Positions 34,435 through 51,888 of a stretch of DNA of 64,000 nt are shown here, one piece after another. The notes below the pieces were generated by a model. The model did no database searches and was not told where the DNA came from. It saw only the letters and a program-made list of their open reading frames with translations. The stretch spans positions 27,191 through 91,190 of IMG/VR virus record IMGVR_UViG_3300032236_000803, one strand, 5' to 3'. Every line of letters starts with the position of its first letter. The first letter of the stretch is position 1. Source of the DNA: a virus. Made by a program: the position numbers and the translations under genes.

Positions 34435-37400
34435 ATGGCGCGTAAGACCATACTTGATACTTATTATACATTTACACCATCGACCCGGACGATTGTGATT
34501 CCGCGTGCCGTTCCAAGAGAAAAATTGGTGTTAATTACCGATGTTACGACAAATCAGGTCATTTACAATTTCTCTGATCCAAACTTAACAGCATCATCTT
34601 ATACAATTGCTCAATCTGCTGATAATACACAGATTTTCACGACAATTGTTCTAAGTTACAATACTGCTTCTTTATCTGCTACAGATAAATTACAGATTGT
34701 TATTGACGAATATGATGAAAAGTTTTCGCCATCTGAATCATATCTAGATCCAATCAATAAACTGAGAGTATCAACTCCTCAGTCATTGATTGATACTGAC
34801 TATGAGTATTCGATTCAGACAACCAAATGGGAACAGCTGTCATTATTAAATAATACTCCATATGCGTATTATGTTACTGCTACTGGTAACTTAAACGTTG
34901 GCGGTATTACAGCAACAAACGGTTCTAGAACATACATTGCTACCACAGGAAGCTATCCTGCTCCTGCTAATGGTTCGCCAATTGTAATTCTTGATAGTTT
35001 ATATTCAGGAGCTGATGGACTTTATATTGTTGATGCTAATAGTATTGTCAATGGCGCAAATACTTTCTCATATACTGGTAAGTTCTTCTATACTGGCGGT
35101 AATCCAACGTCTAATATTATCAATACTGGCGTAACTATTGGGTATCAAGGTTATACCTTCAGCAATTCTTCTATTGCTATGACGTCAGCATCTGTTTCTG
35201 GTAACGTTGTAACTGTACAGACAGTAAATCCTCATAATTTAGCCATTGGTAATGAAATTGCTTTAACTGGCGCTTCATCTGCGAATGGTTCATGGACGGT
35301 ATGTACGGTACAATCTGCAAATACTTTCAGTTTCTATGCAAATACATTCTCTACTGGCGCATTAACGTTAACAAACGCTAATCTATACGTTAGACCACAG
35401 GGTTTAGCTGTTCATAGACCATTTGACGGTGGCGTTCGTTTCTCAACTAATGCTTCTAGTCATAATCAACAGTATATTCGTCAGACTCGTAGATATTTCC
35501 GTTACCAATCAGGTAAAGGTATTCAGATGTCTACTGGTACTATCTTAAAACCTCAATTAAATCTTGATGGTATTACGTATAATGCCACGACAAATCTTGT
35601 TACTGTTGTAACTAAAGACCCCCATAATATCAATTACCCAACAAATATTGCTATTTCTGGTGCAAATGAATCTGGATTTAATGGAACGTTTACTGTTCAG
35701 AACGTTATTAACCCTTATTCATTTACATACACCCCTACGACAACTCCTGGTAATACAACCGCATCTGGTCAGATTTACGGTTCAGTAGTATCTTGGTCTG
35801 GAGCAGAAAATCGTATTGGTATTTTCGATTCTCAGAATGGTCTTTTCTGGAAATTTGACGGAACAACTTTATCGGCTGTAAGACGTAGTTCAACTTATCA
35901 GATTTCTGGACAGGTTACAGTAACTCCAGGTTCTGCGATTGTAAACGCAGCTTCTGGATATCCTACAACTTTCAATAAGCAATTATTGGTTAATGATTTC
36001 ATCGTAATCAAGGGTATGTCTTATCGCGTAACAAATATCATGTCTGATACGCAGCTGACAATTTCTCCTGCTTATCGCGGATTAACTACGCAAACCAATG
36101 CAGTTGTCAGTAGAACAGTTGATACAGTAATTCCATCAACTTCTTTCAATATTGATCGTTTGGATGGCACTGGTCCTTCTGGATATACTATTGACTTGTC
36201 CAAAATGCAAATGTTCTATATCGATTACTCTTGGTATGGTGCAGGGTTCATTCGTTGGGGCGTAAGAGGTCCAGACGGTAACGTAATTTATTGCCATAAG
36301 TTAATTAACAACAACGTTAATTACATGGCTTATATGCGTTCTGGTAACTTACCTGGCCGTTATGAAACTCATACATTTGCTAAGACCACTTATATGGTTG
36401 GTGGCGCATCTGGTCCAGCTACTAACTTCTTATCGACAGATGGAACGATATACGTTGCGAATACGTCCGGTTTCCCCTCATCTGGTACTATCTGGGTCAG
36501 GAATATGGCTAATAGTGAGTATATTACATATAATTCTACAACGTCAAATACTTTCAGCGGATTGACTAGAGGACAACCCGGATTAACTACAACAGGTAAT
36601 TTGGTATACGGTAACAATTATGTCACAGGTCTTGCGTCTACTACTGGCGTACAAGTTAATCAGTATGTATTCGGTGCTGGTATTCCTAACCAAGCGTTCG
36701 TAACTTCTATTCCTAATAGTAGCACTGTTGTATTATCACAAGCATCTATTGGCGTTGGAACAGGTAATACAATTTACTTTGCTCCTATGGGTAATACTGC
36801 TCAGACATTTATTTACTCAGCAACTGCTCAAACTGCGATTGAATTACATTCACCAATGTTTGCGCCAGAAGTTAATCACTGGGGTACATCTGCTATCATG
36901 GATGGCGGTTTCACTAACGATAAATCGTTCATCTTCACCAAAGGTATGACTTCTACTATTTCTGTACCGCAAGGATCGTCTCAGGCTGTCATGAGTTTCA
37001 GAATTGCTCCTTCTGCCAGTAACGGTATTCCCGCTTCTGGTCCGGGTATTCGCGAAATCATTAATCGTATGCAGATGTTACCGTTCGAAACAGACATGTA
37101 TTCAAATGGTTCGTTCTTGATTACTTGTACTTTGAATGGAACAACGTCAAATACAGCAGAAAACTGGACTAACGTTGGTGGATCAAGTTTATCACAATAC
37201 ATTTTCCATGCTCCTGGTACAACAGTATCTGGCGGCGAAGCTGTATTCGGATTCTACTTGAACGTTAATCAGGGTACATATTCTACAACCCAGCAGGATT
37301 TAACTCAGTTACTTGCATTAGGTTCTAGTATTCTTGGCGGTGGTACTGCAAATGCGGCAGTTGGTATCTATCCTAATGGTCCTGACGTAATCACTTTCCA

Positions 37401-37470
37401 AGCTCAGAACATTGATACTGCGGCAAGAGCAATTCAAGCACGTTATTCTTGGAACGAAGCACAGGCATAA
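34435..37470 (+). CDS. Large virion structural protein (1011 aa)
   Basis: YTFTPS...LVLITDVTTNQVIYNFSD N-terminus, RQTRRYFRYQSGKG, IDYSWYGAGFIRWG and C-terminal SWNEAQA, as seen in T4-like structural proteins. Strong SD. Confidence 0.7.
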   Translation: MARKTILDTYYTFTPSTRTIVIPRAVPREKLVLITDVTTNQVIYNFSDPNLTASSYTIAQSADNTQIFTTIVLSYNTASLSATDKLQIVIDEYDEKFSPSESYLDPINKLRVSTPQSLIDTDYEYSIQTTKWEQLSLLNNTPYAYYVTATGNLNVGGITATNGSRTYIATTGSYPAPANGSPIVILDSLYSGADGLYIVDANSIVNGANTFSYTGKFFYTGGNPTSNIINTGVTIGYQGYTFSNSSIAMTSASVSGNVVTVQTVNPHNLAIGNEIALTGASSANGSWTVCTVQSANTFSFYANTFSTGALTLTNANLYVRPQGLAVHRPFDGGVRFSTNASSHNQQYIRQTRRYFRYQSGKGIQMSTGTILKPQLNLDGITYNATTNLVTVVTKDPHNINYPTNIAISGANESGFNGTFTVQNVINPYSFTYTPTTTPGNTTASGQIYGSVVSWSGAENRIGIFDSQNGLFWKFDGTTLSAVRRSSTYQISGQVTVTPGSAIVNAASGYPTTFNKQLLVNDFIVIKGMSYRVTNIMSDTQLTISPAYRGLTTQTNAVVSRTVDTVIPSTSFNIDRLDGTGPSGYTIDLSKMQMFYIDYSWYGAGFIRWGVRGPDGNVIYCHKLINNNVNYMAYMRSGNLPGRYETHTFAKTTYMVGGASGPATNFLSTDGTIYVANTSGFPSSGTIWVRNMANSEYITYNSTTSNTFSGLTRGQPGLTTTGNLVYGNNYVTGLASTTGVQVNQYVFGAGIPNQAFVTSIPNSSTVVLSQASIGVGTGNTIYFAPMGNTAQTFIYSATAQTAIELHSPMFAPEVNHWGTSAIMDGGFTNDKSFIFTKGMTSTISVPQGSSQAVMSFRIAPSASNGIPASGPGIREIINRMQMLPFETDMYSNGSFLITCTLNGTTSNTAENWTNVGGSSLSQYIFHAPGTTVSGGEAVFGFYLNVNQGTYSTTQQDLTQLLALGSSILGGGTANAAVGIYPNGPDVITFQAQNIDTAARAIQARYSWNEAQA

Positions 37471-37475
37471 ACTAA

Positions 37476-38417
37476 ATGCTAACATTAACTAAGTTACCAG
37501 TAGTAACATCCCTTAACGAAGCATCGACATTCTATATGTCGATGCAACCTTCGGGGATACAATCAACAAATGATATCTACTCAAATCAAAATGTATATTA
37601 TTATGCAAATAATGGTGTAGGGACTTTTAATGTTAATGGAACTATAAACGCTTCTTCTGTATTGGTTAATGGTGCACCATTAACCGCTTCTGGAGGAAGC
37701 AGCGGTCCAACAGTCACTGTCACAGCAACTAATGGATTATATTCTATTGGTAATTTCACTGGATCGTATACGGACGGTATAGTTGTTGATTACGTAACTG
37801 GTAATGGCAGAATTTCAGTTGGCCCAGCTGATGGATTGACAATTTATAATGGCGGCGTTGCTAATACTGCATTAGTTACAATTACAAATACTGGTAATTT
37901 TAGTATAGGAACAGCAAGTAATACGTACGCGTTGAATGTTGGCGGTACAGCAAACGTTGGAGCATTATTAATTAATGGAGCACCTCTTTCGGTAGGCGCT
38001 ACGATTACTGATGATACGTCAACTAATGCAACCAGATATATTATGTTAGGTTCTGCAACTTCTGGTACATATTCAGCTGCAAATACTTCATCTTCTAAAT
38101 TGTATTTTAATCCAAGTACAGGTACAACATATTCAACTGTTTTTCAATCATTATCTGATGAAACGCAGAAGACAAATGTTGAACCTATTGTTAATGCAAC
38201 CGATACTCTTAAACAGATTATTGGATATGAATTCGATTGGAAAGATAACGGTTTAAAATCTGCTGGCGTTATTGCTCAGCAATTAGAGAAGATATTACCT
38301 TGGTTAGTCTCTGAAACTGATGGAATTAAAAGCGTCAACTATGCAGGTTTACTTGCGTATCTCATACAATCTAATAAGGAATTAGCAGATAGAATAGAGA
38401 AGTTGGAGAGTAAGTAA
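37476..38417 (+). CDS. Tail fibre with C-terminal intramolecular chaperone (Peptidase S74) domain
   Basis: SLSDETQKTNVEPI...FDWK...GVIAQQLEKILPWLV...VNYAGLLAYLIQSNKEL plus terminal coiled coil. Confidence 0.85.
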   Translation: MLTLTKLPVVTSLNEASTFYMSMQPSGIQSTNDIYSNQNVYYYANNGVGTFNVNGTINASSVLVNGAPLTASGGSSGPTVTVTATNGLYSIGNFTGSYTDGIVVDYVTGNGRISVGPADGLTIYNGGVANTALVTITNTGNFSIGTASNTYALNVGGTANVGALLINGAPLSVGATITDDTSTNATRYIMLGSATSGTYSAANTSSSKLYFNPSTGTTYSTVFQSLSDETQKTNVEPIVNATDTLKQIIGYEFDWKDNGLKSAGVIAQQLEKILPWLVSETDGIKSVNYAGLLAYLIQSNKELADRIEKLESK

Positions 38418-39637
38418 TGGCTACTGGTAATCCTAGTAATTATTGGAAAGATGATCCAATATTTGGAAGTATTGATCTAGATGATGAATATATTACCGAC
38501 CAATGGTTAGTTGATCAGTTTGTTGGGAATAATTTATTTACTTGGGGAAACGACAACCTTGGTCAACTAGGTAATGGAGTGCCCTCAGTAACCGCTTTAT
38601 CGTATTCGTCTCCAATTCAAGTAGGATCATTAACTAATTGGAAACAAGTTGCTGCGGGGGATTCACATACATCAGCAATTAAAACTGATGGTACATTATG
38701 GACATGGGGATGGAATAATTTTGGACAATTAGGTAATGGAACAACAGTATATTATTCATCTCCCATTCAAGTTGGATCATTAACCAATTGGAAACAAGTT
38801 TCCGCCGGATATATTATTACATCAGCAATCAAAACAGATGGAACATTATGGACATGGGGATTGAATCAATATGGTGAATTAGGTAATGGAACAGCAACGC
38901 CTTATTCATCTCCGATTCAAGTAGGTTCTTTGACTAATTGGAAACAGGTATCTTGTGGAGCAAGTACAATAGCAGCAATCAAGACCGATGGAACATTGTG
39001 GACATGGGGATGGTCTAATAATGGAGGACTGGGTAACGGAACAGCATCAGCATCGTTAAATTATTCCTCGCCACTCCAAATCGGAGCACTAACTAATTGG
39101 AAGCAAGTTAGTGCAGGAAACGCACAAACTGCAGCAATCAAAACTGACGGTACTTTATGGGTGTGGGGAAGTAATAATGGAGGACAATTAGGTAATCAGA
39201 ATATAATAAATTATTCCTCGCCAATCCAAGTAGGATCTTTGAATAATTGGAAACAGGTCAGTGTTAATGGTTCTGCTACGGCAGCTATTAAAACTGATGG
39301 TACTTTATGGACATGTGGTTATAACATTCAGATAAGCACACCAATAGGAATATTAGGTAATGGAACAGGAGTATCCTATTCATCCCCGATTCAAGTAGGA
39401 TCTTTGACTAATTGGAAAATCGTTGTATTTTCCGGTTCACAGGGCACCGCTGGAGCAATTAAAACCGATGGTACTTTATGGACATGGGGAATTAATGCAT
39501 CTGGTCAATTAGGTAATGGAACCAATTTAAGATATTCTTCTCCGATTCAAGTAGGTACATTAACTAATTGGAAACAAGTTTCCGGCGGGAACCTTGGAAT
39601 CCATCTAGCAGCAATCACATTCGCAGATATAACATAA
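38417..39637 (+). CDS. RCC1/BLIP-II repeat beta-propeller protein (7 repeats)
   Basis: Seven ~50-aa repeats TLWTWGxNxxGQLGNG...YSSPIQVGSLTNWKQV..G...AIKTDG. TAATG-coupled to the S74 fibre. Confidence 0.9.
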   Translation: MATGNPSNYWKDDPIFGSIDLDDEYITDQWLVDQFVGNNLFTWGNDNLGQLGNGVPSVTALSYSSPIQVGSLTNWKQVAAGDSHTSAIKTDGTLWTWGWNNFGQLGNGTTVYYSSPIQVGSLTNWKQVSAGYIITSAIKTDGTLWTWGLNQYGELGNGTATPYSSPIQVGSLTNWKQVSCGASTIAAIKTDGTLWTWGWSNNGGLGNGTASASLNYSSPLQIGALTNWKQVSAGNAQTAAIKTDGTLWVWGSNNGGQLGNQNIINYSSPIQVGSLNNWKQVSVNGSATAAIKTDGTLWTCGYNIQISTPIGILGNGTGVSYSSPIQVGSLTNWKIVVFSGSQGTAGAIKTDGTLWTWGINASGQLGNGTNLRYSSPIQVGTLTNWKQVSGGNLGIHLAAITFADIT

Positions 39638-39646
39638 GGAAAAATA

Positions 39647-40312
39647 ATGGCACAGTATCTTTTAGTACAAAATAAACAAATAGTACACCTTGGACCATTT
39701 AATTGGAAACAACGTTATATCCAATCAGAATTTGATGACTTACATGACCAAGGAGAAATCTCATTTCAATACCAAGTTCCACCAGTAGACAATGGTTATA
39801 TTGATGTTGGTGAAGGGTTTGAAATCTTTCCTCTTACTGCTATTATTTCTCCAGAGATCAATCCTAATTTCGATCAACCTATTGGTCCATTCTATACCTA
39901 TGATAATAATGAAGCAACTGCAACTTATGAGAAGACTGATAGAAATGTTATTGATATAAAAAATACTGTAAAAACTGTTGCTGCTTCATTGAGATATACC
40001 AAAGAGAATTCTGGAACTAAAGCAATAGTTCAAGGCATAGAAGTTAGTGTAGATACTTCCAGAGAAGGTAGAGCAATCTTTGTTCAAGCATATACCACAA
40101 TGTCCGATTCAGATGTTATTGGATGGAAATTCCCAGAATGTTGGTTGAATTTAACCAAATCCGATTTGGGCATTTGCGTTAATGCTGGAGTTACTCATGT
40201 ACAATCACAATTCGCATGGGAACAAGATATTGATACTCAGACAAATAATGCACAAACAGTTGACGAATTAAAAACCATTTATACCAGTATGTTTCCTGTT
40301 AAAGAGGAATAA
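39647..40312 (+). CDS. DUF4376-like tail fibre assembly protein
   Basis: LRYTKENSG...VDTSREGR...WKF...W.NLT..DL......HVQSQFAWE pattern. AAGGA SD. Confidence 0.65.
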   Translation: MAQYLLVQNKQIVHLGPFNWKQRYIQSEFDDLHDQGEISFQYQVPPVDNGYIDVGEGFEIFPLTAIISPEINPNFDQPIGPFYTYDNNEATATYEKTDRNVIDIKNTVKTVAASLRYTKENSGTKAIVQGIEVSVDTSREGRAIFVQAYTTMSDSDVIGWKFPECWLNLTKSDLGICVNAGVTHVQSQFAWEQDIDTQTNNAQTVDELKTIYTSMFPVKEE

Positions 40313-40315
40313 TCA

Positions 40316-43300
40316 ATGCCTAGTAATTTTGGACCATATCAACCATATACTGGATTTAATACCGCATATCAGACTAATACTTTATGGACATGTGGATATA
40401 ACAGTTCTGGTCAATTAGGTAATGGAAATATTGTAAACTATTCTTCGCCAATTCAGGTTGGAGCATTAACTAATTGGACTCAAGTCGTTGGAGGACTACT
40501 CCAGACAGCAGCAATTAAAACTGACGGTACTTTATGGACATGGGGAAATAATAGTTATGGAGCATTAGGTAATGGAACGGTAAATATAAATTATTCATCA
40601 CCAATCCAAGTAGGCGCTTTAACCAATTGGAAACAGGTTGCTGTAGGAGATTATGCTACAGCAGCAATTAAAACAGATGGCACTTTATGGACATGGGGAC
40701 AGAATAATTTCGGACAATTGGGTAATGGAACGGTAAATATAAATTATTCTTCACCAATTCAAGTAGGCACATTAACCAATTGGAAACAAGTTGCTTTCGG
40801 AGATTATCATGTATCAGCAATTAAAACAGACGGCACTTTATGGACATGCGGATATAATACTTATGGTCAATTAGGTAATGGAACAGGAGTATATTATTCC
40901 TCTCCGATTCAAATAGGATCATTAACCAATTGGAAACAAGTCGGTTGCGGGTATGGCCACACCGCATCTATTAAAACCGATGGTACGTTATGGACATGGG
41001 GAAGTAATGGTAGTGGTCAATTAGGAACAATTTCGGTTTCATTTAACACTAATAACTCATATTCTCCAGTATTGGTTGCAGGAGGGAATACTTGGGCAAC
41101 AACAGACCCAGCTTCGAAAATAAACGTAACCTCAACTTCATTTAGACAATCATATTTCATAGGAAATAACGGTACTTTATGGTCATGTGGATATAATAGG
41201 TACGCGCAATTAGGTAATGGAACAACAACTAATTATTCTTCACCTATTCAAGTAGGAACATTAACTAATTGGAGTCAAATTTCCGGACAATATCACACAG
41301 CAGCAATTAAAACCGATGGTACGTTATGGACATGGGGGGATAATATCGCCGGAGAATTAGGTAATGGAACAACAGCAGGGTATTCCTCTCCAATCCAAGT
41401 AGGAGCATTAACCAATTGGAAACAAGTTGCTTGTGGATTTTATTATACGACAGCAATTAAAACCGATGGAACTTTATGGACATTAGGTTATGGCGGTTAT
41501 GGTTCATTAGGAAATGGAACAACAGCATGGTATTCCTCACCAATTCAAGTAGGATCATTAACTAATTGGAAACAAGTTGCTTGCGGGTATGGCCACACAA
41601 CAGCTATTAAAACCGATGGTACGTTATGGACATGTGGATATAATAATAATGGCCAATTAGGTAATGTAACAACAGCAGGGTATTCCTCTCCAATTCAAGT
41701 TGGTGCATTAACAAATTGGTCTCAGGTTGCTGCTGGATATTATCACACAGCAGCAATTAAAACCGATGGTACTTTATGGACATGGGGAAATAATAGTTAT
41801 GGAGCATTAGGTAATGGAACCAATATTAATTATTCTTCCCCAATCCAAGTAGGCGCTTTAACCAATTGGAAACAAGTTGCTTGTGGACAATACCAAATAG
41901 CAGCAATTAAAACCGATGGTACTTTATGGATGTGCGGATACAATACGGGTAATGGAACCAATATTAATTATTCTTCTCCAATACAAGTAGGCGCTTTAAC
42001 CAATTGGAAACAAGTTGCTTGTGGACAATGGCATACTTATGCTGTTTATGGGGATGGAACGGTATGGTCATGGGGCGATAATTCATATGGAGGGCTAGGC
42101 GCAGCGACATTAGGTAACAACAACACAAGTTCTCCAACCCAAGTAGGTACATTAACCAATTGGACTCAAGTTGCTTGTAGAGGATATCACACAACAGCAG
42201 TCAAAACAGATGGTACTTTATGGGCTTGTGGAAATAATAATTATGGCCAATTAGGTAATGGAACAACAACATTATATTCTTCTCCAATACAAGTAGGCGC
42301 TTTAACTAATTGGATTCAGGTAGCAACAAATCAATACCTCACTTCGGCAATTAAAACTGATGGTACTTTATGGAGATGGGGAGGAAATTTATGGGGAGAC
42401 TTAGGTAATCAGACAACTATAAATTATTCCTCACCAATCCAAGTAGGATCATTAACTAATTGGACTCAAGTTACCAATGTTGCAGCAATTCAAACTACCA
42501 ATTACAACCAAGATTTGGGTCAAAGATATACCACTAAATCATATTTACTTGATGTTTATCCTAATATTGCAAGTCAGATAGGCAATAGAACAAGTCCGGG
42601 ATTGTTTACGTGGGGAAATGATGCGTATGGACAATTAGGTAACGGAACAACCGTATCTTATTCATCACCTATTCAAGTAGGATCATTAACCAATTGGAAA
42701 CAAGTTGGGTGCGGCAGAACAAACTTTATATATTTTACCGCAGCAATTAAAACTGATGGTACTTTATGGACTTGTGGATATAACAGTAAAGGACAATTAG
42801 GTAATGGAACATCGATAAAATACTCTTCCCCAGTTCAAGTAGGAGCATTAACCAATTGGAAACAAGTTGATTGTGGACCATCTGTCGCAGCAATTAAAAC
42901 TGATGGTACTCTATGGACATGGGGACAGAATACAAATGGAGCAATAGGAAATGGTTCAAACAATGTTGCATATTCCTCACCAATTCAAGTAGGAGCACTA
43001 ACCAATTGGAAACAGGTGACTTGTGGCCAAGGCTATACAGCAGCAATCAAAACCGATGGTACTTTATGGACTTGGGGAAATAATCAATTTGGTACATTAG
43101 GAAATGCAACAACTGTATCTTATTCTTCACCAATTCAAGTAGGATCATTAACCAATTGGAAACAGGTTTCGGCTGGACAACATATAGCAGCAGTTAAAAC
43201 TGATGGTACTCTATGGACTTGTGGATATAACGGTAAAGGACAATTAGGTAATGGAACAACAATAAATTACTCTTCTCCAATCCAAGTAGGAGCATTAACA

Positions 43301-43663
43301 AATTGGAGTCAAGTTGCTTGTGGATATAGACATACATTATCAATTAAGACCGATGGCACTTTATGGACATGGGGGAATAATGCCGCAGGAGGGTTAGGTA
43401 ATGGAAAAACTACCGATTACTCCTCGCCAATCCAAATAGGTTCATTAACGAATTGGAAAAGGGTTTCTGGAGGAATATATCATTCATTATCAATCAAAAC
43501 CGATGGTACTTTATGGACATGGGGCGACAATTCACAAGGACAATTGGGCAATTCGTCAATAACGCAATCCAATTCACCTATACAGATAGGAACTCTAACT
43601 ACATGGAAACAAGTTGCTTGCGGATATAGATTCTCATCAGCAATTTCAGACGGATACATTTAA
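40316..43663 (+). CDS. RCC1 repeat protein (21 repeats, three propellers)
   Basis: Counted 14 repeats, a linker, then 7 repeats. GAGG SD. Confidence 0.9.
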   Translation: MPSNFGPYQPYTGFNTAYQTNTLWTCGYNSSGQLGNGNIVNYSSPIQVGALTNWTQVVGGLLQTAAIKTDGTLWTWGNNSYGALGNGTVNINYSSPIQVGALTNWKQVAVGDYATAAIKTDGTLWTWGQNNFGQLGNGTVNINYSSPIQVGTLTNWKQVAFGDYHVSAIKTDGTLWTCGYNTYGQLGNGTGVYYSSPIQIGSLTNWKQVGCGYGHTASIKTDGTLWTWGSNGSGQLGTISVSFNTNNSYSPVLVAGGNTWATTDPASKINVTSTSFRQSYFIGNNGTLWSCGYNRYAQLGNGTTTNYSSPIQVGTLTNWSQISGQYHTAAIKTDGTLWTWGDNIAGELGNGTTAGYSSPIQVGALTNWKQVACGFYYTTAIKTDGTLWTLGYGGYGSLGNGTTAWYSSPIQVGSLTNWKQVACGYGHTTAIKTDGTLWTCGYNNNGQLGNVTTAGYSSPIQVGALTNWSQVAAGYYHTAAIKTDGTLWTWGNNSYGALGNGTNINYSSPIQVGALTNWKQVACGQYQIAAIKTDGTLWMCGYNTGNGTNINYSSPIQVGALTNWKQVACGQWHTYAVYGDGTVWSWGDNSYGGLGAATLGNNNTSSPTQVGTLTNWTQVACRGYHTTAVKTDGTLWACGNNNYGQLGNGTTTLYSSPIQVGALTNWIQVATNQYLTSAIKTDGTLWRWGGNLWGDLGNQTTINYSSPIQVGSLTNWTQVTNVAAIQTTNYNQDLGQRYTTKSYLLDVYPNIASQIGNRTSPGLFTWGNDAYGQLGNGTTVSYSSPIQVGSLTNWKQVGCGRTNFIYFTAAIKTDGTLWTCGYNSKGQLGNGTSIKYSSPVQVGALTNWKQVDCGPSVAAIKTDGTLWTWGQNTNGAIGNGSNNVAYSSPIQVGALTNWKQVTCGQGYTAAIKTDGTLWTWGNNQFGTLGNATTVSYSSPIQVGSLTNWKQVSAGQHIAAVKTDGTLWTCGYNGKGQLGNGTTINYSSPIQVGALTNWSQVACGYRHTLSIKTDGTLWTWGNNAAGGLGNGKTTDYSSPIQIGSLTNWKRVSGGIYHSLSIKTDGTLWTWGDNSQGQLGNSSITQSNSPIQIGTLTTWKQVACGYRFSSAISDGYI

Positions 43664-43667
43664 AAAC

Positions 43668-44174
43668 ATGAAAAACATTATAATTTGCGACTCTTTTTAT
43701 TCTGATATTGATTCTTTATATAATATCATTTCTACAATGGAATTTGAACAGAATTTATATGGAGAAGAAATCAAAGACTTCTCATATATTCCAGAACCAT
43801 TAACTAATATGTTCAAATCCATTCTACTTGAACCTGTAGAAATTCAACCCAATTCTGGAGTATTCAGAAAACCAAATTCTGGTGTTCTATTTGAGAATTT
43901 CTACCAACACGCATTATGGAAATGTATTGTAGCTCTTGAAGATACCACATTACATATTCATGAACAGGAAAATGTTAAGACTTTCTTTAACGTAGAGAAT
44001 GTTGAAGATTTTGTATTGAATAATTCATTTGATAAATCTAAATGGACTACGGTTAATTCGATAAATATTAAGAAAAATGACTTTGTTTTCATAAGACCTT
44101 GGTTTTGGCATTCTATGGAAGAAAATAAGTTAATACAAGTATTTCTATTAAATCAGGAAATTAAGGAAGAATAA
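43668..44174 (+). CDS. Hypothetical protein, possibly a degenerate DUF6445/2OG-oxygenase-fold protein
   Basis: IIICDSFYSD start and late FIRPWFWHS motif. ATG at 43668 follows the upstream stop and is preferred over 43614. Confidence 0.5.
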   Translation: MKNIIICDSFYSDIDSLYNIISTMEFEQNLYGEEIKDFSYIPEPLTNMFKSILLEPVEIQPNSGVFRKPNSGVLFENFYQHALWKCIVALEDTTLHIHEQENVKTFFNVENVEDFVLNNSFDKSKWTTVNSINIKKNDFVFIRPWFWHSMEENKLIQVFLLNQEIKEE

Positions 44175-47119
44175 TGGCATCTCCATCTGGTTATAAGTTT
44201 CCAATATTACAATCCGCTTTGTTTGGTACAAATTCTGCGGTGTTTAGTAATAGTGATCTTAATTTCCCAGGAACCTATTTTCATTTAACGGGACAGCCTC
44301 AGTTTACAATTGAATGTTTTATAAACTTTACAGGATATCCTTCTTCTTACGGTAATGGTTATGCGGCTTGTATATTTTCGACAGAAAGTATATCTGGCGG
44401 AGCTGGACTTTATCTCGGAACATTAGGCACTGCATCTTCGTATACTGGAATGCAACTGTATTTGAATAATGGAACTATTAATCTTAATATGACGTATGCG
44501 TTTGCGATTAATACTTGGTATCATATTGCATTAGTAAGAGATGTCGGAGGCGTATTTAATTTTTATGTAAATGGTGTTAGTATAGGAACAACAACCAACA
44601 CAACAACATGGACAGACAATTCACCATATTGGATAGGCCAAAACGCAAATAATGGTGGATCTCATGATTATATGGTCGGATACATCAGTAATTTTAGAAT
44701 AACAACAACTGCTGTATATACCAGTACATTCTCCCCGCCTGTCGCTCCGTTAACAGCAATAGCAGGAACTCAAATATTAACTTGCCAAGATACAACTGCT
44801 ATAGATCGAGGACCGAATAATATAACAATAACAAATGATGGTACAACATTTTCGGCAGTAACTGTCGCATCACCGACTTTTGTAGCATCATCAACTATCG
44901 TTGATATGGCAGATATGTTTGTTCGTAAGGAATTGTTTTTAAATGCTGGCTTATGGGAATGGGGATATAATGGATATGGTCAATTAGGTAATGGAACAAC
45001 AATAAATTACTCTTCTCCAATCCAAGTAGGAGCATTAACAAATTGGAAACAAGTAGCAGCTGGACAAGGTCACACAGCATCTATTAAAACTGATGGTACT
45101 TTATGGACATGTGGATATAACGGAAATGGTCAATTAGGTAATGGAACAGGAGTATATTATTCCTCTCCGATTCAAGTAGGTTCATTAACCAATTGGAGAC
45201 AAGTGGCATGTGGATATTCACAGACAGCAGCAATCAAAACTGATGGTACTTTATGGACGTGGGGATATAATAATCTAGGACAATTAGGTAATGGAAACAC
45301 CACCAATTATTCCTCACCAATCCAAGTAGGCGCTTTAACCAATTGGAAACAGGTTGCTGTAGGAGATTATGCTACAGCAGCAATTAAAACTGATGGTACT
45401 TTATGGACATGGGGATGGAATAATTATGGACAATTGGGTAATGGAACAGTAAATATAAATTATTCCTCACCAATCCAAGTAGGCACATTAACCAATTGGA
45501 AACAAGTAGCATCTGGACAATATCACACAGTAGCAATTAAAACTGATGGCACCCTATGGGGATGTGGATATAATTCTTATGGTCAATTAGCTTACACATC
45601 TGTGAATTTTGGAAATTTATATCAATCTTCGCCTGTACAGGTAGCGGGAGGAAACGTTTGGTCAACAGTTGATCCAAATACACAATTATTAACCATTGGT
45701 GGCGGTTACCATAAGGCAGCAATTCAATCCAATGGTACTTTATGGACGTGTGGTTATAATAGTGCCGGACAATTAGGTAATGGAACATCATTAATAAATT
45801 ATTCCTCACCAATCCAAGTAGGATCATTAACTAATTGGAAACAAGTTGCATGTGGATATTTACATACAGCAGCAATCAAAACTGATGGTACATTATGGGC
45901 TTGGGGATGGAATACTTTTGGTCAATTAGGTAATGGAACAAACGGAAATAATTACTCTTCTCCAATCCAAGTAGGTGCATTAACCAATTGGAAACAAGTA
46001 GCATGTGGATATTTACAGACAGCAGCAATCAAAACTGATGGTACTTTATGGACATGTGGATATAATGCTAATGGTCAACTAGGTAATGGAAACACCACCA
46101 ATTATTCCTCACCAATCCAAGTAGGATCACTAACTAATTGGAAACAGGTTGCTGGAGGATTAAGTCATACAGCAGCAATTAAGACTGATGGTACATTATG
46201 GGCATGTGGATATAATGGCCAAGGGCAATTAGGTAATGGAACAACAACACCATATTCCTCACCAATCCAAGTTGGTGCATTAACAAACTGGAAACAAGTA
46301 GCATCTGGACAATATCACACAGTAGCAATTAAAACTGATGGCACCCTATGGGGATGTGGATATAATTATGATGGTCAATTGGGTAATGGAACTGTAACTA
46401 ATTATTCCTCACCAATCCAAGTAGGAACATTAACCAATTGGAAACAAGTAGCAGCTGGACAAGGTTGCACAGTAGCAGTTAAAACTGATGGCACCCTATG
46501 GGCTTGGGGCGGAAACTACGACGGACAATTGGGTAATGGAACTGTAACTAATTATTCCTCGCCAATTCAAGTAGGATCGTTAACTAATTGGACACAAGTT
46601 GCTTCTTGCGGCGGCCATGCAGGTACGACAATTGTTGCTTATAACAATACGGGAAATTTATGGTCGTGGGGAAGTAATATTTATGGGCAATTGGGCGCAG
46701 CGGTATTAGGAAATTATAATCAATCTTCTCCAATCCAAGTGGGTACATTAACAAATTGGAAACAGGTTGCTGGTCGATCAAATAATACAGCAGCAATCAA
46801 AACTGATGGTACATTATGGACATGGGGATTTAATCCAAATGGTCAATTGGGTAATGGAACAGTAAATATAAATTATTCCTCTCCAATTCAAGTAGGATCA
46901 TTAACCAATTGGAAACAGGTTGCTAGTGGACAAGCGTATATAGCAGCAATTAAGACTGATGGTACATTATGGGCTTGGGGATATAATGGCCAAGGGCAAT
47001 TAGGTAATGGAACAACAACACCATATTCCTCACCAATCCAAGTTGGTGCATTAACAAACTGGAAACAAGTCGTTGCAATCAATCATACCTTAGCAATATC
47101 CTCACCAGACCTTCCATAA
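44174..47119 (+). CDS. LamG/ConA-like lectin domain plus RCC1 repeat protein (14 repeats)
   Basis: FTIECFI...NTWYHIALVR...FYVNG...GYISNFRIT LamG-3 motif followed by 14 RCC1 repeats. AAGGAAG SD. Confidence 0.9.
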   Translation: MASPSGYKFPILQSALFGTNSAVFSNSDLNFPGTYFHLTGQPQFTIECFINFTGYPSSYGNGYAACIFSTESISGGAGLYLGTLGTASSYTGMQLYLNNGTINLNMTYAFAINTWYHIALVRDVGGVFNFYVNGVSIGTTTNTTTWTDNSPYWIGQNANNGGSHDYMVGYISNFRITTTAVYTSTFSPPVAPLTAIAGTQILTCQDTTAIDRGPNNITITNDGTTFSAVTVASPTFVASSTIVDMADMFVRKELFLNAGLWEWGYNGYGQLGNGTTINYSSPIQVGALTNWKQVAAGQGHTASIKTDGTLWTCGYNGNGQLGNGTGVYYSSPIQVGSLTNWRQVACGYSQTAAIKTDGTLWTWGYNNLGQLGNGNTTNYSSPIQVGALTNWKQVAVGDYATAAIKTDGTLWTWGWNNYGQLGNGTVNINYSSPIQVGTLTNWKQVASGQYHTVAIKTDGTLWGCGYNSYGQLAYTSVNFGNLYQSSPVQVAGGNVWSTVDPNTQLLTIGGGYHKAAIQSNGTLWTCGYNSAGQLGNGTSLINYSSPIQVGSLTNWKQVACGYLHTAAIKTDGTLWAWGWNTFGQLGNGTNGNNYSSPIQVGALTNWKQVACGYLQTAAIKTDGTLWTCGYNANGQLGNGNTTNYSSPIQVGSLTNWKQVAGGLSHTAAIKTDGTLWACGYNGQGQLGNGTTTPYSSPIQVGALTNWKQVASGQYHTVAIKTDGTLWGCGYNYDGQLGNGTVTNYSSPIQVGTLTNWKQVAAGQGCTVAVKTDGTLWAWGGNYDGQLGNGTVTNYSSPIQVGSLTNWTQVASCGGHAGTTIVAYNNTGNLWSWGSNIYGQLGAAVLGNYNQSSPIQVGTLTNWKQVAGRSNNTAAIKTDGTLWTWGFNPNGQLGNGTVNINYSSPIQVGSLTNWKQVASGQAYIAAIKTDGTLWAWGYNGQGQLGNGTTTPYSSPIQVGALTNWKQVVAINHTLAISSPDLP

Positions 47120-47166: not shown

Positions 47167-47940
47167 ATGAAAAAATATCATTTTATCGGTGGTCTTCCTA
47201 GAAGCGGGACCACCCTTCTTTCTACTATCCTCAAACAAAATCCAAAGTTTGAGGCTTCAATTTCTGGTCCTTTAGCCAGATTCACCAGAGCAATTATTCA
47301 AGAATCCTCTTCTCAAGGCGGATATCGTTTTGAATGTCCTCCAGAAAAACGTAAGAATCTTATCAACGGATTGTTTGAAAATTATTATGATGATCCAACA
47401 AAAGAAGTTGCGTTTAACACCAACAGAGGTTGGGGATTATTACTCCCAACCGTCAAAGATTTATATCCTGACTCAAAGTTGATTCTTTGCGTTCGTGATA
47501 TTTCTCAAATTTTAAATTCATTTGAGTGGTTATTAAGAAAACAACCTTATGTTTTTTCTTCCATGTTTTCTCCGGAAGAAAATACCAACGTTTATACTCG
47601 TTGCGAAACATTGATGAATCCAGGAAGAACTCTAGGATTTGCTTATAATGCAGTAAAACAGGCAATTACATCAGAACACAAATCATCTATTATGATTATC
47701 GAATACGATAAACTAGCCAAGAATCCAGAATTTATGATGAAAACTCTGTATAACTTTATTGGCGAACCATATTTTGAACATGATTTTAATAGCGTAGAAG
47801 CATCTTACACCGATTTTGATGAAGACGTTCAAATTGAAAATTTACATACTACCAGAAAAAAAGTAGAATTCAAACCGCAAGAAATGATTATTCCTCCAGA
47901 TATTCTTCAAATGGTGAAAAATATGGAAGTTTGGCGTTAA
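47167..47940 (+). CDS. PAPS-dependent sulfotransferase family protein
   Basis: 5'-PSB loop [10 protein letters not shown] and 3'-PB motif [18 protein letters not shown]. Confidence 0.85.
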
Positions 47941-47941
47941 T

Positions 47942-48637
47942 ATGAATTCTTTTTACATTTATGCTTATCTGAGAAAAGACGGAACACCATATTATATAGG
48001 AAAAGGAAAAGATAATAGAATCAAAAAACGACACAGAATTTCTATACCTAAAGATGACAATAAAATAGTGATAATGGAAAATAATTTAACAGAACTTGGA
48101 GCATTCGCATTAGAAAGAAGATACATTCGTTGGTACGGAAGAAAAGATAATGGTACAGGAATATTAAGAAACCTTACTGATGGAGGAGAAGGTACTATTA
48201 ATATATCCGAAAAGACAAAAATTAAAATATCTTTATCCAAAAAAGGCATGGTTGCTTGTAAAGACGAATTCGGTAATAATTTTTTAATTTCAAAAGAAGA
48301 ATTTGATTCAAATGAAAAATTAATAGGAATAACTAAAAACGAGAAAAAAACGGAATCATCTAAAACAAAATTATCAGAAGTTCGTAAAAATTTAGTTTCT
48401 TGTAAAGATATTGATGGTAATATTTTCGTAATACCAAAAGAAGAATTTGATTCAAACCCAAACTTGGTAGGAATAAACAAAGGAATTAAATTTTCAAAAG
48501 AAAGTAATTTAAAAAAATCAATAGCATCAAAAGGAATACCTAAAGGAAAACAAAAAATAGTAACTTGCGACAAATGCGGAAAATCTGGAGGAATTTCAAA
48601 CATGAAAAGACACCATTTTGAGAATTGTAAATCATGA
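47942..48637 (+). CDS. GIY-YIG-type free-standing homing endonuclease
   Basis: FYIYAYLR...[24 protein letters not shown], Lys-rich NUMOD-like repeats and C-terminal CxxCGK...RHHFENC. Confidence 0.8.
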
Positions 48638-49362
48638 TTTATAATATAACTAAATCCACATTTGGTACCATGGGTACTAGGTGTGGAGATTTGATTGCTA
48701 TCTGTAATATTATTGAGTATTTGAGAAAAACAAAAAATCCAAATATTCAATTTTATATTCCAAAATCTGTATTAAACCAAGACGATTATATCCATAAGTT
48801 TTATGATTATCTTTGTGAAATTACAGACTACTTTTCCAAAGAAGAAGGGTACTTAGAATTACCTTTCTTTAATGTTTCTGTTTGGGATTTCAGATCAATT
48901 ATTGGTGATCATGTAGTTATTAAAAATCCAATGGATAATATAGATTATAAGGTCGTTGTATTCCCATTGTATGATGCGGAATACAATAACCAAAGGAACT
49001 GGTCTATTGAATGTCTCAATGATATTCTAAATGAGTGCAGAGAAAAATATCCAAATCATCGAAAAATACTTTGTGCAAAAGAACAACCGCCTGAAGGACT
49101 GTTTAATTATGATAGGTTTGAAATATCAACAGATTTCATATCAAATATAAATCATATAACAACTGCAGAAGTATTTTACGGAGGAGATACAGGGGTATCT
49201 CATTTTGCTTCGGTTCTAGACAAGGGTCCAGAATTGAATTATATATATTCAAACAGGTGCTTGATACACACGATACCTTTTTATTGCTTAAGTAAAGGAA
49301 AAGGTAATTTAAAAACATTTTGGTTAGATTTTATGGGTAATGCGACATGGGACTTAAAATAA
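48634..49362 (+). CDS. Putative glycosyltransferase, GT9/RfaF-like (GT-B)
   Basis: N-terminal RCGDLI and C-terminal [12 protein letters not shown] resemble the GT9 GD...DSG..HxA signature. Confidence 0.55.
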
Positions 49363-49940
49363 ATTTAGGCGGCGGTTTAAAGAAATTTGAAGGATTTCTT
49401 AGTTTAGATTATGATGAGCTAGTGAATCCTGATTATGTTGTCAATTTAGATGATGTTAATATTCGTCTACCATTTGACGATAATACAGTAGAAGAAATTA
49501 AAGCGCATCATATTTTTGAACACATTGGTGATGGATTCATCCCATTAATGAAAGAATTATATCGCGTTGCAGAACATGGTTGTATTCTTGACACCATTGT
49601 TCCCCATCATTTCCACGAAGTATATTATGGCGATCCAACGCATAAACGACCAATCACTGTAAATGGTATGTTGATGTTTGGAAAGAAATTCAATAGAGAT
49701 CACATCGCAACGATCAATTCAAGTTCCGGTATGGGATTACAGTTTGATATTGACTTTGATATGATTCATTATGAATTTGAATATGATCAATTCTATGTTC
49801 CTATGTTGGAAGATTTCTTTAAGAGAAAAGACGAAGGTAATGTTACCCCAGAAGAAGATTTCTCTATTCAGAGATTACTCAGAGAAGCAACAAATGTTTG
49901 TATGAATACAAAAATGAAAATGGTTGCGATTAAAGAATAA
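49347..49940 (+). CDS. Class I SAM-dependent methyltransferase-like protein
   Basis: [26 protein letters not shown] and DPTH motifs. Confidence 0.75.
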   Translation: MGLKINLGGGLKKFEGFLSLDYDELVNPDYVVNLDDVNIRLPFDDNTVEEIKAHHIFEHIGDGFIPLMKELYRVAEHGCILDTIVPHHFHEVYYGDPTHKRPITVNGMLMFGKKFNRDHIATINSSSGMGLQFDIDFDMIHYEFEYDQFYVPMLEDFFKRKDEGNVTPEEDFSIQRLLREATNVCMNTKMKMVAIKE

Positions 49941-50476
49941 TGTCTCACAAACAACAAAGAGAATTTATAGAAAGAGTCAGAGGTAATTTTAGTTTCTATT
50001 TTGGCGGTAAGAAAGTTCTTGAGGTTGGTAGTCTTATAATTAATGGTACTATTAGAGATTTCTTTATACAATGCCAATATACTGGAATTGACGTTGGCGA
50101 AGGTTGGGGAGTCGATATTGTTTGTCAAGGACAAGATTATTCAGAACCTGATAATACTTTTGACGTTACTTGTTCTGGAGAGTGTTTTGAACATAATCCT
50201 TATTGGTTAGAAACATTTCAAAATATGATCAGAATGACCAAAAGCGGAGGTTTAATATTCTTCACTTGCGCCACAACAGGAAGAGAAGAACACGGAACTG
50301 CAAGAAATCTCCCAGAAGATTCTTCTTTAACAATAGGTCTAGGTTGGGATTATTATAAAAATTTAACTGAACAAGATTTTAGAGACAACTTGGATTTCGA
50401 TGATTTATTCAGTTATTACGGATTTGAAGTAAATGATGAAGCTCATGATTTATATTTTTGGGGGATTAAGAGATAA
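49940..50476 (+). CDS. Class I SAM-dependent methyltransferase
   Basis: KVLEVGS, YTGID, FDVTCSGECFEH, MIRMTKSGG. Confidence 0.85.
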   Translation: MSHKQQREFIERVRGNFSFYFGGKKVLEVGSLIINGTIRDFFIQCQYTGIDVGEGWGVDIVCQGQDYSEPDNTFDVTCSGECFEHNPYWLETFQNMIRMTKSGGLIFFTCATTGREEHGTARNLPEDSSLTIGLGWDYYKNLTEQDFRDNLDFDDLFSYYGFEVNDEAHDLYFWGIKR

Positions 50477-51888
50477 TGGACCAGAATGATACTTATGGTG
50501 AAAACGATCCTTTAGTATTTGTTTGTAAACAATTAATCAAAGGACAACGCGAAGATTTAGCAGAACAAGTAATTGACGCTTTTGCTCCTGTAGCAACACA
50601 CATTGAATCGGTCAATTGTATTGCCAAGTTATATTATGACGTAAGAAATTATGATAAAGCAGAATCGTATACTTTAAAAACATTAGATATGTGTGAATCA
50701 AACGAACAGAAATATAATGTTCGCGCAAATCTAGGTAAGATGTATAACAACTTTAACGAACCTGTTAAGTCCCTTTTCTATTCTAAACAGAATCTAGCGG
50801 TAACTCCAAATAATCCAGATACTTTATTGGAAATGGTGTTCTCGTATTTTCTAAACGGACAAAAAGAACCTGCAGAAAAGATTCTAAGAGAATTAAAAGA
50901 AAGAGAACATGAACTAGCAGAAAGACACAGAAATATAGTGAATTTCAATCTTGGCACTTACGACATGGAGGCTGGACATTTCCTAAAAGGACTGGGCGGT
51001 TTCTTAATCAACGTTAAAAAGTTAGACCTATGGTTCAACAACGCAGAAATTCCTTTAAAGTATTGGGATGGCGGATTATATCCCGGTAGAACTCTGGTCT
51101 TTTATATGTCTGGCGGAGGGTTTGGCGATTCGTTTATTGCTATTTCATATTGGAATAAATTGAAAGCAGCAGGATTTAATCCAGTTTATTGTAATGCGAA
51201 TCAAGATATTGTAGACATTTTCAATCGTTGCGGATATAGGTCGGTTACAGATTGGAAAGACGTACAAGACGAAGATCCATTATGGTGCTTTGCGTTTGAA
51301 GTTCCGCTATATCTTAATATGAAACCCGAACAGATGTTGACAGAGAATTATCTCTGGGCGTCTGACGAAGCAAGAGAAAAATGGTCTTGGTTAAAAGAAC
51401 GTAAGAAACTTAAAGTTGGCGTAAGGTTTATTGGTAACAAAAGAAATAATCAATTACTTTATAGACACATTGAACTGGATAATATGATGAATTTCCTTCA
51501 TCAGACTTTTGAGGGACAAGACGTAGAATATTATTCGTTACAGAAAGGAGATGGCGAAGAAGAAGCAAGAACCTGTTCTGAACTTATTGACGTTGCGGAT
51601 CAAATCAATTCGTTTGATGATACGTTAGCATTGATTGAAAATCTTGATATTGTTATCTCTACATGTACTTCTGTAGTCCATTTAGCAGGTGCTGTTGGGA
51701 CAAAGACCGTTGTGTTCGTACCTATTGCCGCATATTTCACATATCTAACTCCAACGCTAGAGGGAAGACCTCCTCATACAAGTCCTTGGTATGGCGATAA
51801 CTTTAGATTCTTTAGACAAGCAAAACCTAAAGTTTGGGACGAACCAATGTTAGAAGCTAAAGAATTTATACGATCAGAATTTCTATGA
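50476..51888 (+). CDS. TPR-domain plus GT9 (heptosyltransferase-like) glycosyltransferase
   Basis: N-terminal TPR helices, GGFGD, YSLQKG, and FDDTLALIENLDIVISTCTSVVHLAGAVG...SPWY signature. Confidence 0.8.
   Translation: MDQNDTYGENDPLVFVCKQLIKGQREDLAEQVIDAFAPVATHIESVNCIAKLYYDVRNYDKAESYTLKTLDMCESNEQKYNVRANLGKMYNNFNEPVKSLFYSKQNLAVTPNNPDTLLEMVFSYFLNGQKEPAEKILRELKEREHELAERHRNIVNFNLGTYDMEAGHFLKGLGGFLINVKKLDLWFNNAEIPLKYWDGGLYPGRTLVFYMSGGGFGDSFIAISYWNKLKAAGFNPVYCNANQDIVDIFNRCGYRSVTDWKDVQDEDPLWCFAFEVPLYLNMKPEQMLTENYLWASDEAREKWSWLKERKKLKVGVRFIGNKRNNQLLYRHIELDNMMNFLHQTFEGQDVEYYSLQKGDGEEEARTCSELIDVADQINSFDDTLALIENLDIVISTCTSVVHLAGAVGTKTVVFVPIAAYFTYLTPTLEGRPPHTSPWYGDNFRFFRQAKPKVWDEPMLEAKEFIRSEFL

Follow-up and report, generated by a model that had tools for sequence, protein, structure and literature searches.

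RCC1-like domains occur in UVR8, the RLDs of HERC2 and HERC1, RPGR, human RCC1 and BLIP-II, which share one repeat family and a closed seven-bladed propeller; in BLIP-II the fold does nothing but bind a protein partner tightly with one of its faces. Phage tail fibers and receptor-binding proteins evolve in a modular fashion, with a conserved N-terminal attachment region and a distal binding part that is exchanged between relatives. The vlsE, pilE/pilS and lamprey VLR systems each combine a silent donor library with a single expression site, to which the VLR system adds dedicated deaminases, AID/APOBEC-like enzymes from which a plain family-level search would have trouble telling a T4-like dCMP deaminase. 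For propellers, exchange of repeats is described in the HNWD/NWD family of WD40 genes from Podospora anserina (het-d, het-e, het-r); according to Paoletti et al. 2007 (PMC1805685) and Chevanne et al. 2010 (PMC2873952), repeats are exchanged within and between paralogues, variation is focused on a few interaction-face positions, and repeat rearrangements make new unit variants. The jumbo phage phAPEC6 encodes eleven RCC1-like proteins, and its virion proteome table includes ~40 kDa proteins annotated as 'DNA condensation protein' (PMC7247149); judging by the annotation, these entries would be its RCC1-like proteins. Our literature search found no paper on an RCC1 propeller as an exchanged phage fiber head.

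The window analyzed here is a 64,000-nucleotide stretch of a short-read metagenome contig (91 kb in full, ~55% of the genome) from an uncultured freshwater lake myophage, kin of the T4-like cyanophages. Its tail-fiber module contains three adjacent RCC1 genes, A, B and C, with 7, 21 and 14 blades (Table 1), so that the 42 blades counted in the initial annotation are borne out; the flanking tail-fiber and virion structural genes are common to T4-like cyanophages at ~43% identity, and a fiber gene ending in Peptidase_S74 directly precedes gene A. The DUF4376 gene is kept between RCC1 genes in all relatives, with the same gene order. The N-terminal motifs of the three RCC1 genes are also kept across relatives; the two motif parts of gene B adjoin each other in relatives with seven blades, and the motif of gene C is uninterrupted in relatives. 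The 186-aa protein encoded between genes B and C has no Pfam or PHROG match; an ESM Atlas lead points to DUF6445-like phage clusters. We consider genes A, B and C to encode modular host-binding propellers of a T4-like lake phage, diversified by ordinary recombination, with a probability of about 0.6.

Table 1. Features of the RCC1 locus and its longest shared tracts (window coordinates)
Feature	Position	Strand	Details
Fiber protein, C-terminal intramolecular chaperone domain Peptidase_S74	37476..38417	+	PF13884 E 7.7e-12; many PHROG tail-fiber families
Gene A	38417..39637	+	40-residue N-terminal anchor 38417-38536, then one 7-blade RCC1 propeller (blades 38534-39634)
DUF4376 protein, tail-fiber-associated family	39647..40312	+	PF14301 E 1.3e-5; PHROG 10508 'tail fiber protein'
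Gene B	40316..43663	+	21 blades in two modules split by N-terminal motif part 2
Gene B layout			motif part 1 40316-40357; 14-blade module 40382-~42505; motif part 2 42506-42601; 7-blade propeller 42602-43660
186-aa protein between RCC1 genes 2 and 3	43614..44174	+	83-89% identical in relatives
Gene C	44174..47119	+	motif part 1, ConA-like lectin domain, motif part 2, 14 blades
Gene C layout			Laminin_G_3 ~44285-44713 (PF13385 E 2.1e-16); motif part 2 ~44879-44950; blades 44951-47116
77-nt exact tract	40598..40674 (B02) = 45314-45390 (C03)	+	maximal exact match
67-nt exact tract	43241..43307 (B19) = 44981-45047 (C01)	+	contains post-GNG loop
92-nt exact tract	46208..46299 (C09) = 46979-47070 (C14)	+	contains first two loops
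79-nt exact tract	46289..46367 (C09/C10) = 45497-45575 (C04/C05)	+	11-nt overlap with 92-nt tract

All three genes score far above the Pfam cut-offs, with RCC1 (PF00415) at 232, 716 and 504 bits for A, B and C against 21.7 bits and WD40_RLD (PF25390) at 228-744 bits against 150; there are 41 RCC1 matches in the contig and none outside these genes. A phmmer search reaches Arabidopsis UVR8 at E 5e-53. AF2 models, which are of moderate confidence (pLDDT 69-70), predict a closed seven-blade RCC1-like propeller with four strands per blade. The model of gene A (pLDDT 69, pTM 0.75) aligns by Foldseek with HERC2 RLD2 and UVR8 at TM 0.76-0.86, the central part of gene C gives a VIA-align Z of 44.8 (rmsd 1.8 Å, 325 residues), and BLIP-II of Streptomyces is reached at Z 26; a GEF-type function is not implied for these propellers. 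Each blade contains three variable windows, which follow W-x-W/C-G, GNG and KQV as the initial annotation had placed them, with ~10 variable positions per blade; the other columns are near-invariant at the protein level. By the strand topology of the model, the three windows all lie on one propeller face, the one that the D-to-A and B-to-C connections form, as had been anticipated. Blades 5 and 12 are atypical in B and again in C, and in three pairs (B05/C05, B06/C06 and B12/C12) each blade is the closest match of the other.

A search for exact matches of at least 40 nt within 38417-47119 returned ten, and the four tract pairs of Table 1, all reported at first inspection, are 100% identical, cannot be extended by one base and are the longest four of the ten. 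Around the 77-nt tract, 95% identity extends over a 203-nt segment (40589-40791 = 45305-45507) that is off register by one blade between the B and C modules, and the 92-nt tract lies within a 200-nt segment of 92.5% identity; the run length for B19/C01 has P 1.3e-5 (Bonferroni 0.008). Because the 92-nt and 79-nt tracts overlap in C09, this blade (46196-46345) is a two-parent mosaic, with 21 of 22 informative sites like C14 followed by 25 of 25 like C04 (Fisher 1.8e-12), and the claim that one repeat combines two donors therefore stands. Mosaic triplets are present among the blades; all-against-all run-length tests, which had been proposed for detecting exchange, find identity clustering beyond site heterogeneity (six pairs at P<0.001, with 0.6 expected), and loops common to different blades always have identical codons. 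Copying has moved DNA segments with one or two loops from blade to blade, where the two blades need not adjoin each other and may belong to different genes. Distances of 5' and 3' blade segments are almost uncorrelated (Mantel r 0.18, p 0.09), and the two segments agree on the nearest neighbor in only 3 of 30 blades; these unlinked halves could in part reflect saturation and not many exchanges.

It is highly improbable that the assembler created the tracts, the mosaic blades or the order of the blades as chimeras within a repeat array. Although the window is a metagenome contig, contigs built at k=31 cannot span the repeats, and five of six contigs of a related phage lack one 150-nt blade inside a 215-nt exact repeat in a manner that resembles repeat collapse, the parental tracts of C09 overlap by just 11 nt; at the usual k a de Bruijn graph would need a longer overlap to switch between them, so that reads must contain the junction. 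Each of the three ORFs is intact, the blades number 7, 21 and 14, and the placement of the atypical blades is the same in B and C, which also speaks against an artifact. Contigs from a source-like run (X1) match the window at 99% or better with even depth over the unique parts, a contig from another study (X4) is identical to the window over 46277-46448, and exact tracts of like kind, up to 82-215 nt, occur in 6 of 6 independently assembled relatives examined.

The framework of the repeats had been described as near-invariant DNA, a description that holds for the protein only. Half of the framework synonymous sites differ (pS 0.51, similar to 0.47 in loop codons), pairs among the 42 blades have a mean nucleotide identity of 0.69, and the longest common exact run per blade pair has a median of 15 nt. 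Blade identity is 0.695 within and 0.694 between genomes, and the blades of relatives have the same consensus scaffold; with a framework dN/dS of 0.04, it is protein-level purifying selection, and not DNA homogenization, that seems to preserve the scaffold. In the dN/dS comparison suggested earlier, the loop value of ~0.9 was computed on columns picked for variability and cannot tell positive selection from relaxed constraint. In the relative L017, a 5-SNP patch produces four amino-acid changes, all in loops. Without homogenization, the framework DNA can guide homologous recombination only poorly, and the diverged synonymous sites together with the 15-nt median runs mean that exchange cannot be frequent.

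Reverse transcriptase was sought as RVT_1, with no match in the 91-kb contig (~55% of the genome); the 120 mismatches in high-identity segments include every type and direction with no adenine bias, and no template/variable repeat pair differing at adenines was found. The contig holds no silent cassette store, as 42 of 42 blades lie within three ORFs that are complete from start to stop. Of the gene-conversion scheme first put forward, segment copying and independence from reverse transcriptase appear to hold for blade diversification; guidance by the framework does not, and a dedicated or programmed VLR-like system is not supported. It is very doubtful that the locus is a dedicated generator, in which high-rate targeted gene conversion from a library of blade cassettes would produce new binding faces within the population. 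Loop-bearing tracts do recur between blades and genes with loops in differing combinations, the pattern repeats in relatives and variation is limited to one face; however, silent cassettes and an incomplete expression gene are lacking in the contig, the framework is diverged as described, and the source-like run shows one sequence at ~75x, as read from Logan contigs (k=31) that drop rare variants and break at repeats, so that the loop reassortment once proposed for the population was not seen in it. Furthermore, six contigs of one related phage from six metagenomes are 99.9% identical in the RCC1 genes, setting aside a single blade indel and a patch of five SNPs.

It is also conceivable, and quite unlikely, that genes A, B and C form a combinatorial binder repertoire from which general T4-type recombination yields host-range-shifting blade recombinants in populations. 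The 42 blades with their short framework homologies would be the recombination substrate, and selection would keep the scaffold and the sevenfold count so that exchange stays productive; if true, phages would have in such a repertoire a functional equivalent of DGRs that works by recombination.

Comparison with relatives points to larger units of change. Against the closest relative (L022), gene A is 95% identical at its N-terminus and 69% in its propeller; at the nucleotide level the anchor is 90-98% identical, the DUF4376 gene 85-97% and the propeller 35-78%, and dS is 0.25-0.28 in the flanks versus 1.3 in the propeller framework. The entire gene-A propeller has thus been replaced between conserved anchors, and among relatives such whole-propeller replacement, rather than loop reassortment, is the dominant change. 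Blade counts in relatives are 7/14/7, 7/21/7 and 7/7/7, with one relative having nine consecutive seven-blade genes, which extends the multiples of seven first noticed in the window.

The conserved-anchor and swapped-head pattern, typical of receptor-binding proteins, is apparent in genes A, B and C, which are probably adhesins or receptor-binding proteins of the tail-fiber module. The same mode of evolution could serve another role, that of intracellular effectors or decoration proteins such as BLIP-II-like host-protein binders or 'DNA condensation' proteins; RCC1, HERC2, UVR8 and BLIP-II all use an RCC1-like propeller to bind proteins, phage annotations name RCC1-like proteins chromosome-condensation regulators, and the virion link of A, B and C is itself inferential. 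We regard this role as unlikely, given that the genes lie within the fiber block right after the S74 fiber gene and are interleaved with the DUF4376 gene, that heads are swapped on conserved anchors, and that gene C includes a lectin-type domain.

As modular host-binding propellers, the proteins would each be anchored to the virion by the short conserved N-terminal motif, followed by one to three closed seven-blade propellers, to which gene C adds its ConA-like lectin domain. Purifying selection would keep the consensus-like scaffold while three loops per blade vary freely on one face. Related phages would swap whole propeller modules at the conserved anchors, and propellers would be gained or inserted seven blades at a time, because only closed seven-blade rings fold. 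Occasionally, copying or unequal crossing-over would carry tracts of 50-200 nt from one blade to another, in the same gene or in another of the three, giving mosaic blades with new loop combinations; the enzymes responsible would presumably be those of ordinary recombination.

In this locus and its relatives, RCC1 propellers seem to behave as exchangeable receptor-binding heads, with an anchor, swaps, units of seven and one variable face. Should binding be confirmed, T4-like lake phages would have a receptor-binding architecture that is built from repeats and is not trimeric, and the propellers would provide a naturally occurring consensus-repeat scaffold in which each blade has ~10 variable positions. 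The phage harboring the locus would be highly recombinogenic, and the locus offers a clean case in which to gauge the frequency with which new specificities arise by ectopic recombination of diverged repeats.

Among known systems, DGRs resemble the locus in having a phage binding protein (predicted here) with a constant scaffold and few hypervariable positions; unlike DGRs, the contig is without reverse transcriptase, a template/variable pair or adenine-specific mismatches. With VLR, vlsE and pilE the locus would share the making of new binding surfaces through copying of short repeat modules guided by short homologies, whereas every blade here lies in an intact gene and there is no donor/expression-site layout. 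The HNWD genes are alike in that the window repeats have also been exchanged within a gene (C09/C14, C04/C09) and between genes (B02/C03, B19/C01). They differ in fold and host, being WD40 proteins of a fungus rather than RCC1 proteins of a phage; they also evolve in concert with a variable repeat number, whereas the window shows occasional patches without homogenization (identity 0.69, pS 0.51) and is confined to sevens. Compared with the cellular RLDs, the window blades are far more alike, on a consensus-like scaffold, and they come 7, 14 or 21 to a chain within a phage fiber module and behind a phage-specific N-terminal motif. Tail-fiber mosaicism is matched by the sharp breaks of identity at domain borders in the window, where the head is an RCC1 propeller, or several, in place of the usual trimeric fiber tip.

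Blades of the three RCC1 genes A, B and C are segmental mosaics, and the first observation made on this array is largely confirmed. Segmentation reproduces the blade counts of 7, 21 and 14 proposed in the initial annotation, and the blade alignment displays three variable windows or loops (after W-x-W/C-G, after GNG and after KQV) set in an almost invariant protein scaffold. The four reported tract pairs are exact and maximal: 77 nt in B02/C03 (gene B blade 2 and gene C blade 3), 67 nt in B19/C01, 92 nt in C09/C14 and 79 nt in C09-C10/C04-C05; they rank as the four longest among ten exact matches of at least 40 nt. The exact tracts are the cores of longer segments at 90-95% identity, for example 40589-40791 versus 45305-45507 (203 nt, 95%).

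Four lines of evidence establish that this mosaicism is real. Clustering of identity was assessed by a run-length test with exact probabilities on 35 gap-free blades, the per-site match frequency and the overall identity of each pair being held fixed; B19/C01 gives P=1.3e-5 (Bonferroni 0.008), B02/C03 gives P=4.6e-4, and six pairs have P<0.001 where 0.6 are expected. For C09/C14, P is <=2e-4 by simulation in a first version of the test, which was inflated by gapped blades. Triplet comparisons bear out the two-donor origin claimed for C09, which is C14-like at 21 of 22 informative sites and then C04-like at 25 of 25 (Fisher 1.8e-12); B02 is B10-like at 10/10 sites, then C03-like at 12/12. Recurring loops are encoded by identical codons every time across the blades that share them, which rules out convergence and indicates that these loops were copied. 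Lastly, distances between blades in the 5' third show hardly any correlation with those in the 3' third (Mantel r 0.18, p 0.09), and the nearest neighbours of the two thirds agree in only 3/30 blades.

The arrays lie among fibre and other structural genes, as listed in the table. Their source is a linear 91 kb contig from IMG/VR with an estimated completeness of 55%, of which the window covers bases 27191-91190; structural genes in the window have a protein identity of ~43% to those of T4-like cyanophages. Megablast against GenBank phages finds no near-identical phage and no match for the fibre genes; the sole match of the RCC1 array is 220 nt in S-SRM01. Of the region's words, 91% occur in a sequencing run whose label says no more than 'metagenome', and 6-10% in runs that are freshwater metagenomes. 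An identical copy of the gene A protein is carried by another contig of 156,782 bases, and similar proteins number >7,900 in metagenomes, some of them fused to fibre-type domains. The 186-aa ORF has neither a Pfam nor a PHROG match; it is conserved, has TTG as its listed start with a 50-nt overlap with the end of B, and a weak ESM Atlas pointer leads to DUF6445-like phage clusters. Products of the genes downstream of C could modify the virion or host surface.

Genes of the RCC1 locus and its surroundings, in window coordinates
Feature	Position	Remark
Long Ala/Asn-rich fibre gene	30308-34399	
Virion structural protein	34435-37470	
Fibre protein	37476-38417	C-terminal S74 chaperone domain
RCC1 gene A	38417-39637	7 blades by segmentation
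DUF4376 protein	39647-40312	
RCC1 gene B	40316-43663	21 blades by segmentation
186-aa protein	43614-44174	no assigned function; between B and C
RCC1 gene C	44174-47119	14 blades by segmentation
Sulfotransferase (PF13469, E 1.8e-15), SAM methyltransferase (PF13489), TPR-containing protein	47167-51888	directly downstream of C

Misassembly is probably not the source of the mosaics. The parental tracts of C09 overlap by just 11 nt, less than a graph switch would need; each ORF is intact, and in B and C alike the atypical blades are numbers 5 and 12. Contigs assembled separately from the source-like run at k=31 agree with the window at >=99%, with an even depth of ~75x in unique parts, a contig of another study matches 46277-46448 exactly, and the same kind of tracts is present in all six independently assembled relatives examined. 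The blade order inside the arrays rests on a single short-read contig; Logan contigs (k=31) break at repeats and have no bearing on this order or on rare recombinants. Three further runs contain relatives at 90-95% similarity, and apparent joints in them were rejected as evidence of reassortment, being relatives' blades with other loops.

That arrays can collapse is suggested by a relative recovered as six contigs from six different metagenomes, whose first 12 kb, RCC1 genes included, agree at 99.9%; in these genes the contigs differ only by one blade indel and one 5-SNP patch. A 150-nt blade within L015:11845-12145 is absent from five of the six contigs (L016-L020), at a site that is a 215-nt exact tandem repeat. 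The resulting 6-blade gene is either a real variant or an assembly collapse of the repeat; collapse is the simplest account, albeit unproven, and the gene was not counted against the sevenfold blade numbers. The patch, in contig L017, spans 59 nt of RCC1 gene 1 (7671-7729 in L015 coordinates) and leads to four amino-acid changes, all at loop positions; a donor blade was not found within L017's own locus.

The initial annotation also described the framework DNA as near-invariant, and this is contradicted at the nucleotide level. In a set of 30 canonical blades, pS is 0.51 and dN/dS 0.04 for framework codons, and pS 0.47 and dN/dS ~0.9 for loop codons; mean blade identity is 0.69, and the longest exact run common to two blades is typically <=15 nt. 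The scaffold is thus kept by protein-level selection rather than by DNA homogenisation, and tract copying has been rare and recent, over an old, diverged background. Genome-wide concerted evolution is excluded by the framework pS together with equal blade identity within (0.695) and between (0.694) genomes of the window and its relatives. Homologous recombination requires some tens of identical bases; at this requirement, with runs of ~15 nt, the framework would be a poor guide for the exchange it was supposed to direct.

The model of gene A is a propeller of seven blades, each four-stranded (pLDDT 69, pTM 0.75); it aligns to HERC2 RLD2 and UVR8 with TM scores of 0.76-0.86, and by sequence the E value to UVR8 is 5e-53. 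Variable windows 1 and 2 map to the D-to-A strand connection and window 3 to the B-to-C one, with LTNW and TDGT, both invariant, as the A-B and C-D turns. From the topology of an up-down four-strand blade, all variable windows are predicted to lie on one face of the propeller and the invariant turns on the opposite face, in agreement with the surface envisaged earlier. The AF2 model of the propeller part of gene C (pLDDT 70.5, pTM 0.49) features a complete RLD aligned to central residues 258-600, corresponding to blades 5'-12' (Z 44.8, rmsd 1.8 A over 325 residues); confidence is low precisely at the two atypical blades (5, 12), which would be the junctions. The model fits a 14-blade module that looks like a propeller nested in a propeller, with 4+3 outer and 7 inner blades, rather than a tandem pair. 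This putative nested module occupies 44951-47116, its inner part about 45650-46678, and by homology also 40382-42505 in B.

The gene order RCC1, DUF4376, RCC1, 186-aa gene, RCC1 is common to 13 loci, with blade counts in relatives of 7/14/7, 7/21/7 and 7/7/7 and the same scaffold consensus throughout. A more distant relative (L013:7256-20122) has a row of nine RCC1 genes with seven blades apiece, all of them extended at the N-terminus by ~100 residues; the nine have 33 exact tracts of at least 40 nt in common. In another relative the third RCC1 gene (L012:11892-13910) extends past the propeller with ~280 residues of Thr/Ser-rich tandem repeats of Ig- or fn3-like look. Three N-terminal motifs define three paralogue classes; those of classes 2 and 3 are contiguous in relatives and split in the window. 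The gene B motif (class 2) lies at 40316-40357 and 42506-42601 with the first 14 blades between, and the gene C motif (class 3) at 44174-44209 and 44879-44950 with a ConA-like lectin domain between (PF13385, E 2e-16).

Comparison with the closest relative, L022 (91% identity in the DUF4376 protein), bears on how the A propeller changed. Nucleotide identity is 90-98% in the A anchor, 35-78% in the A propeller, and back at 85-97% in DUF4376 and at the very start of the B coding sequence; flanking dS is 0.25-0.28, and that of the propeller framework 1.3. The A propeller was thus replaced as a module, as opposed to loops merely mutating in place. In the upstream fibre gene, the C-terminal portion (37995-38417) has a dS of 0.94 against L022 and the adjacent A anchor 0.28, which makes the locus a patchwork of segments differing in age.

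The contig contains no reverse transcriptase and mismatches between its blades have no adenine bias, which together rule out a diversity-generating retroelement (DGR). The dedicated diversifier resembling lamprey VLR assembly that was first proposed is likewise unsupported: every blade is within an intact gene, leaving no silent cassettes in store of the VLR, vlsE or pilE kind. Homologous recombination is very active in T4-like phages, and the process left over would be general homologous recombination at three scales, in which modules may be replaced between phages, whole propellers gained, and short tracts copied or unequally crossed over between blades; closed seven-blade rings would be kept by selection.

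No publication was found in which RCC1 propellers are described as exchangeable heads of phage fibres, most 'RCC1' hits being culture-collection strain numbers. The paper on phage phAPEC6 states that functional information is lacking for prokaryotic RCC1 proteins, and its virion proteome includes similarly annotated proteins of ~40 kDa (PMC7247149). The closest published analogue of the RCC1 locus is the HNWD family of WD40 proteins in Podospora; two reports describe exchange of propeller repeats inside genes and from gene to gene, along with diversifying surface positions (PMC1805685, PMC2873952). Compared with HNWD, the RCC1 repeats of this locus are not homogenised, and their counts are fixed in sevens.
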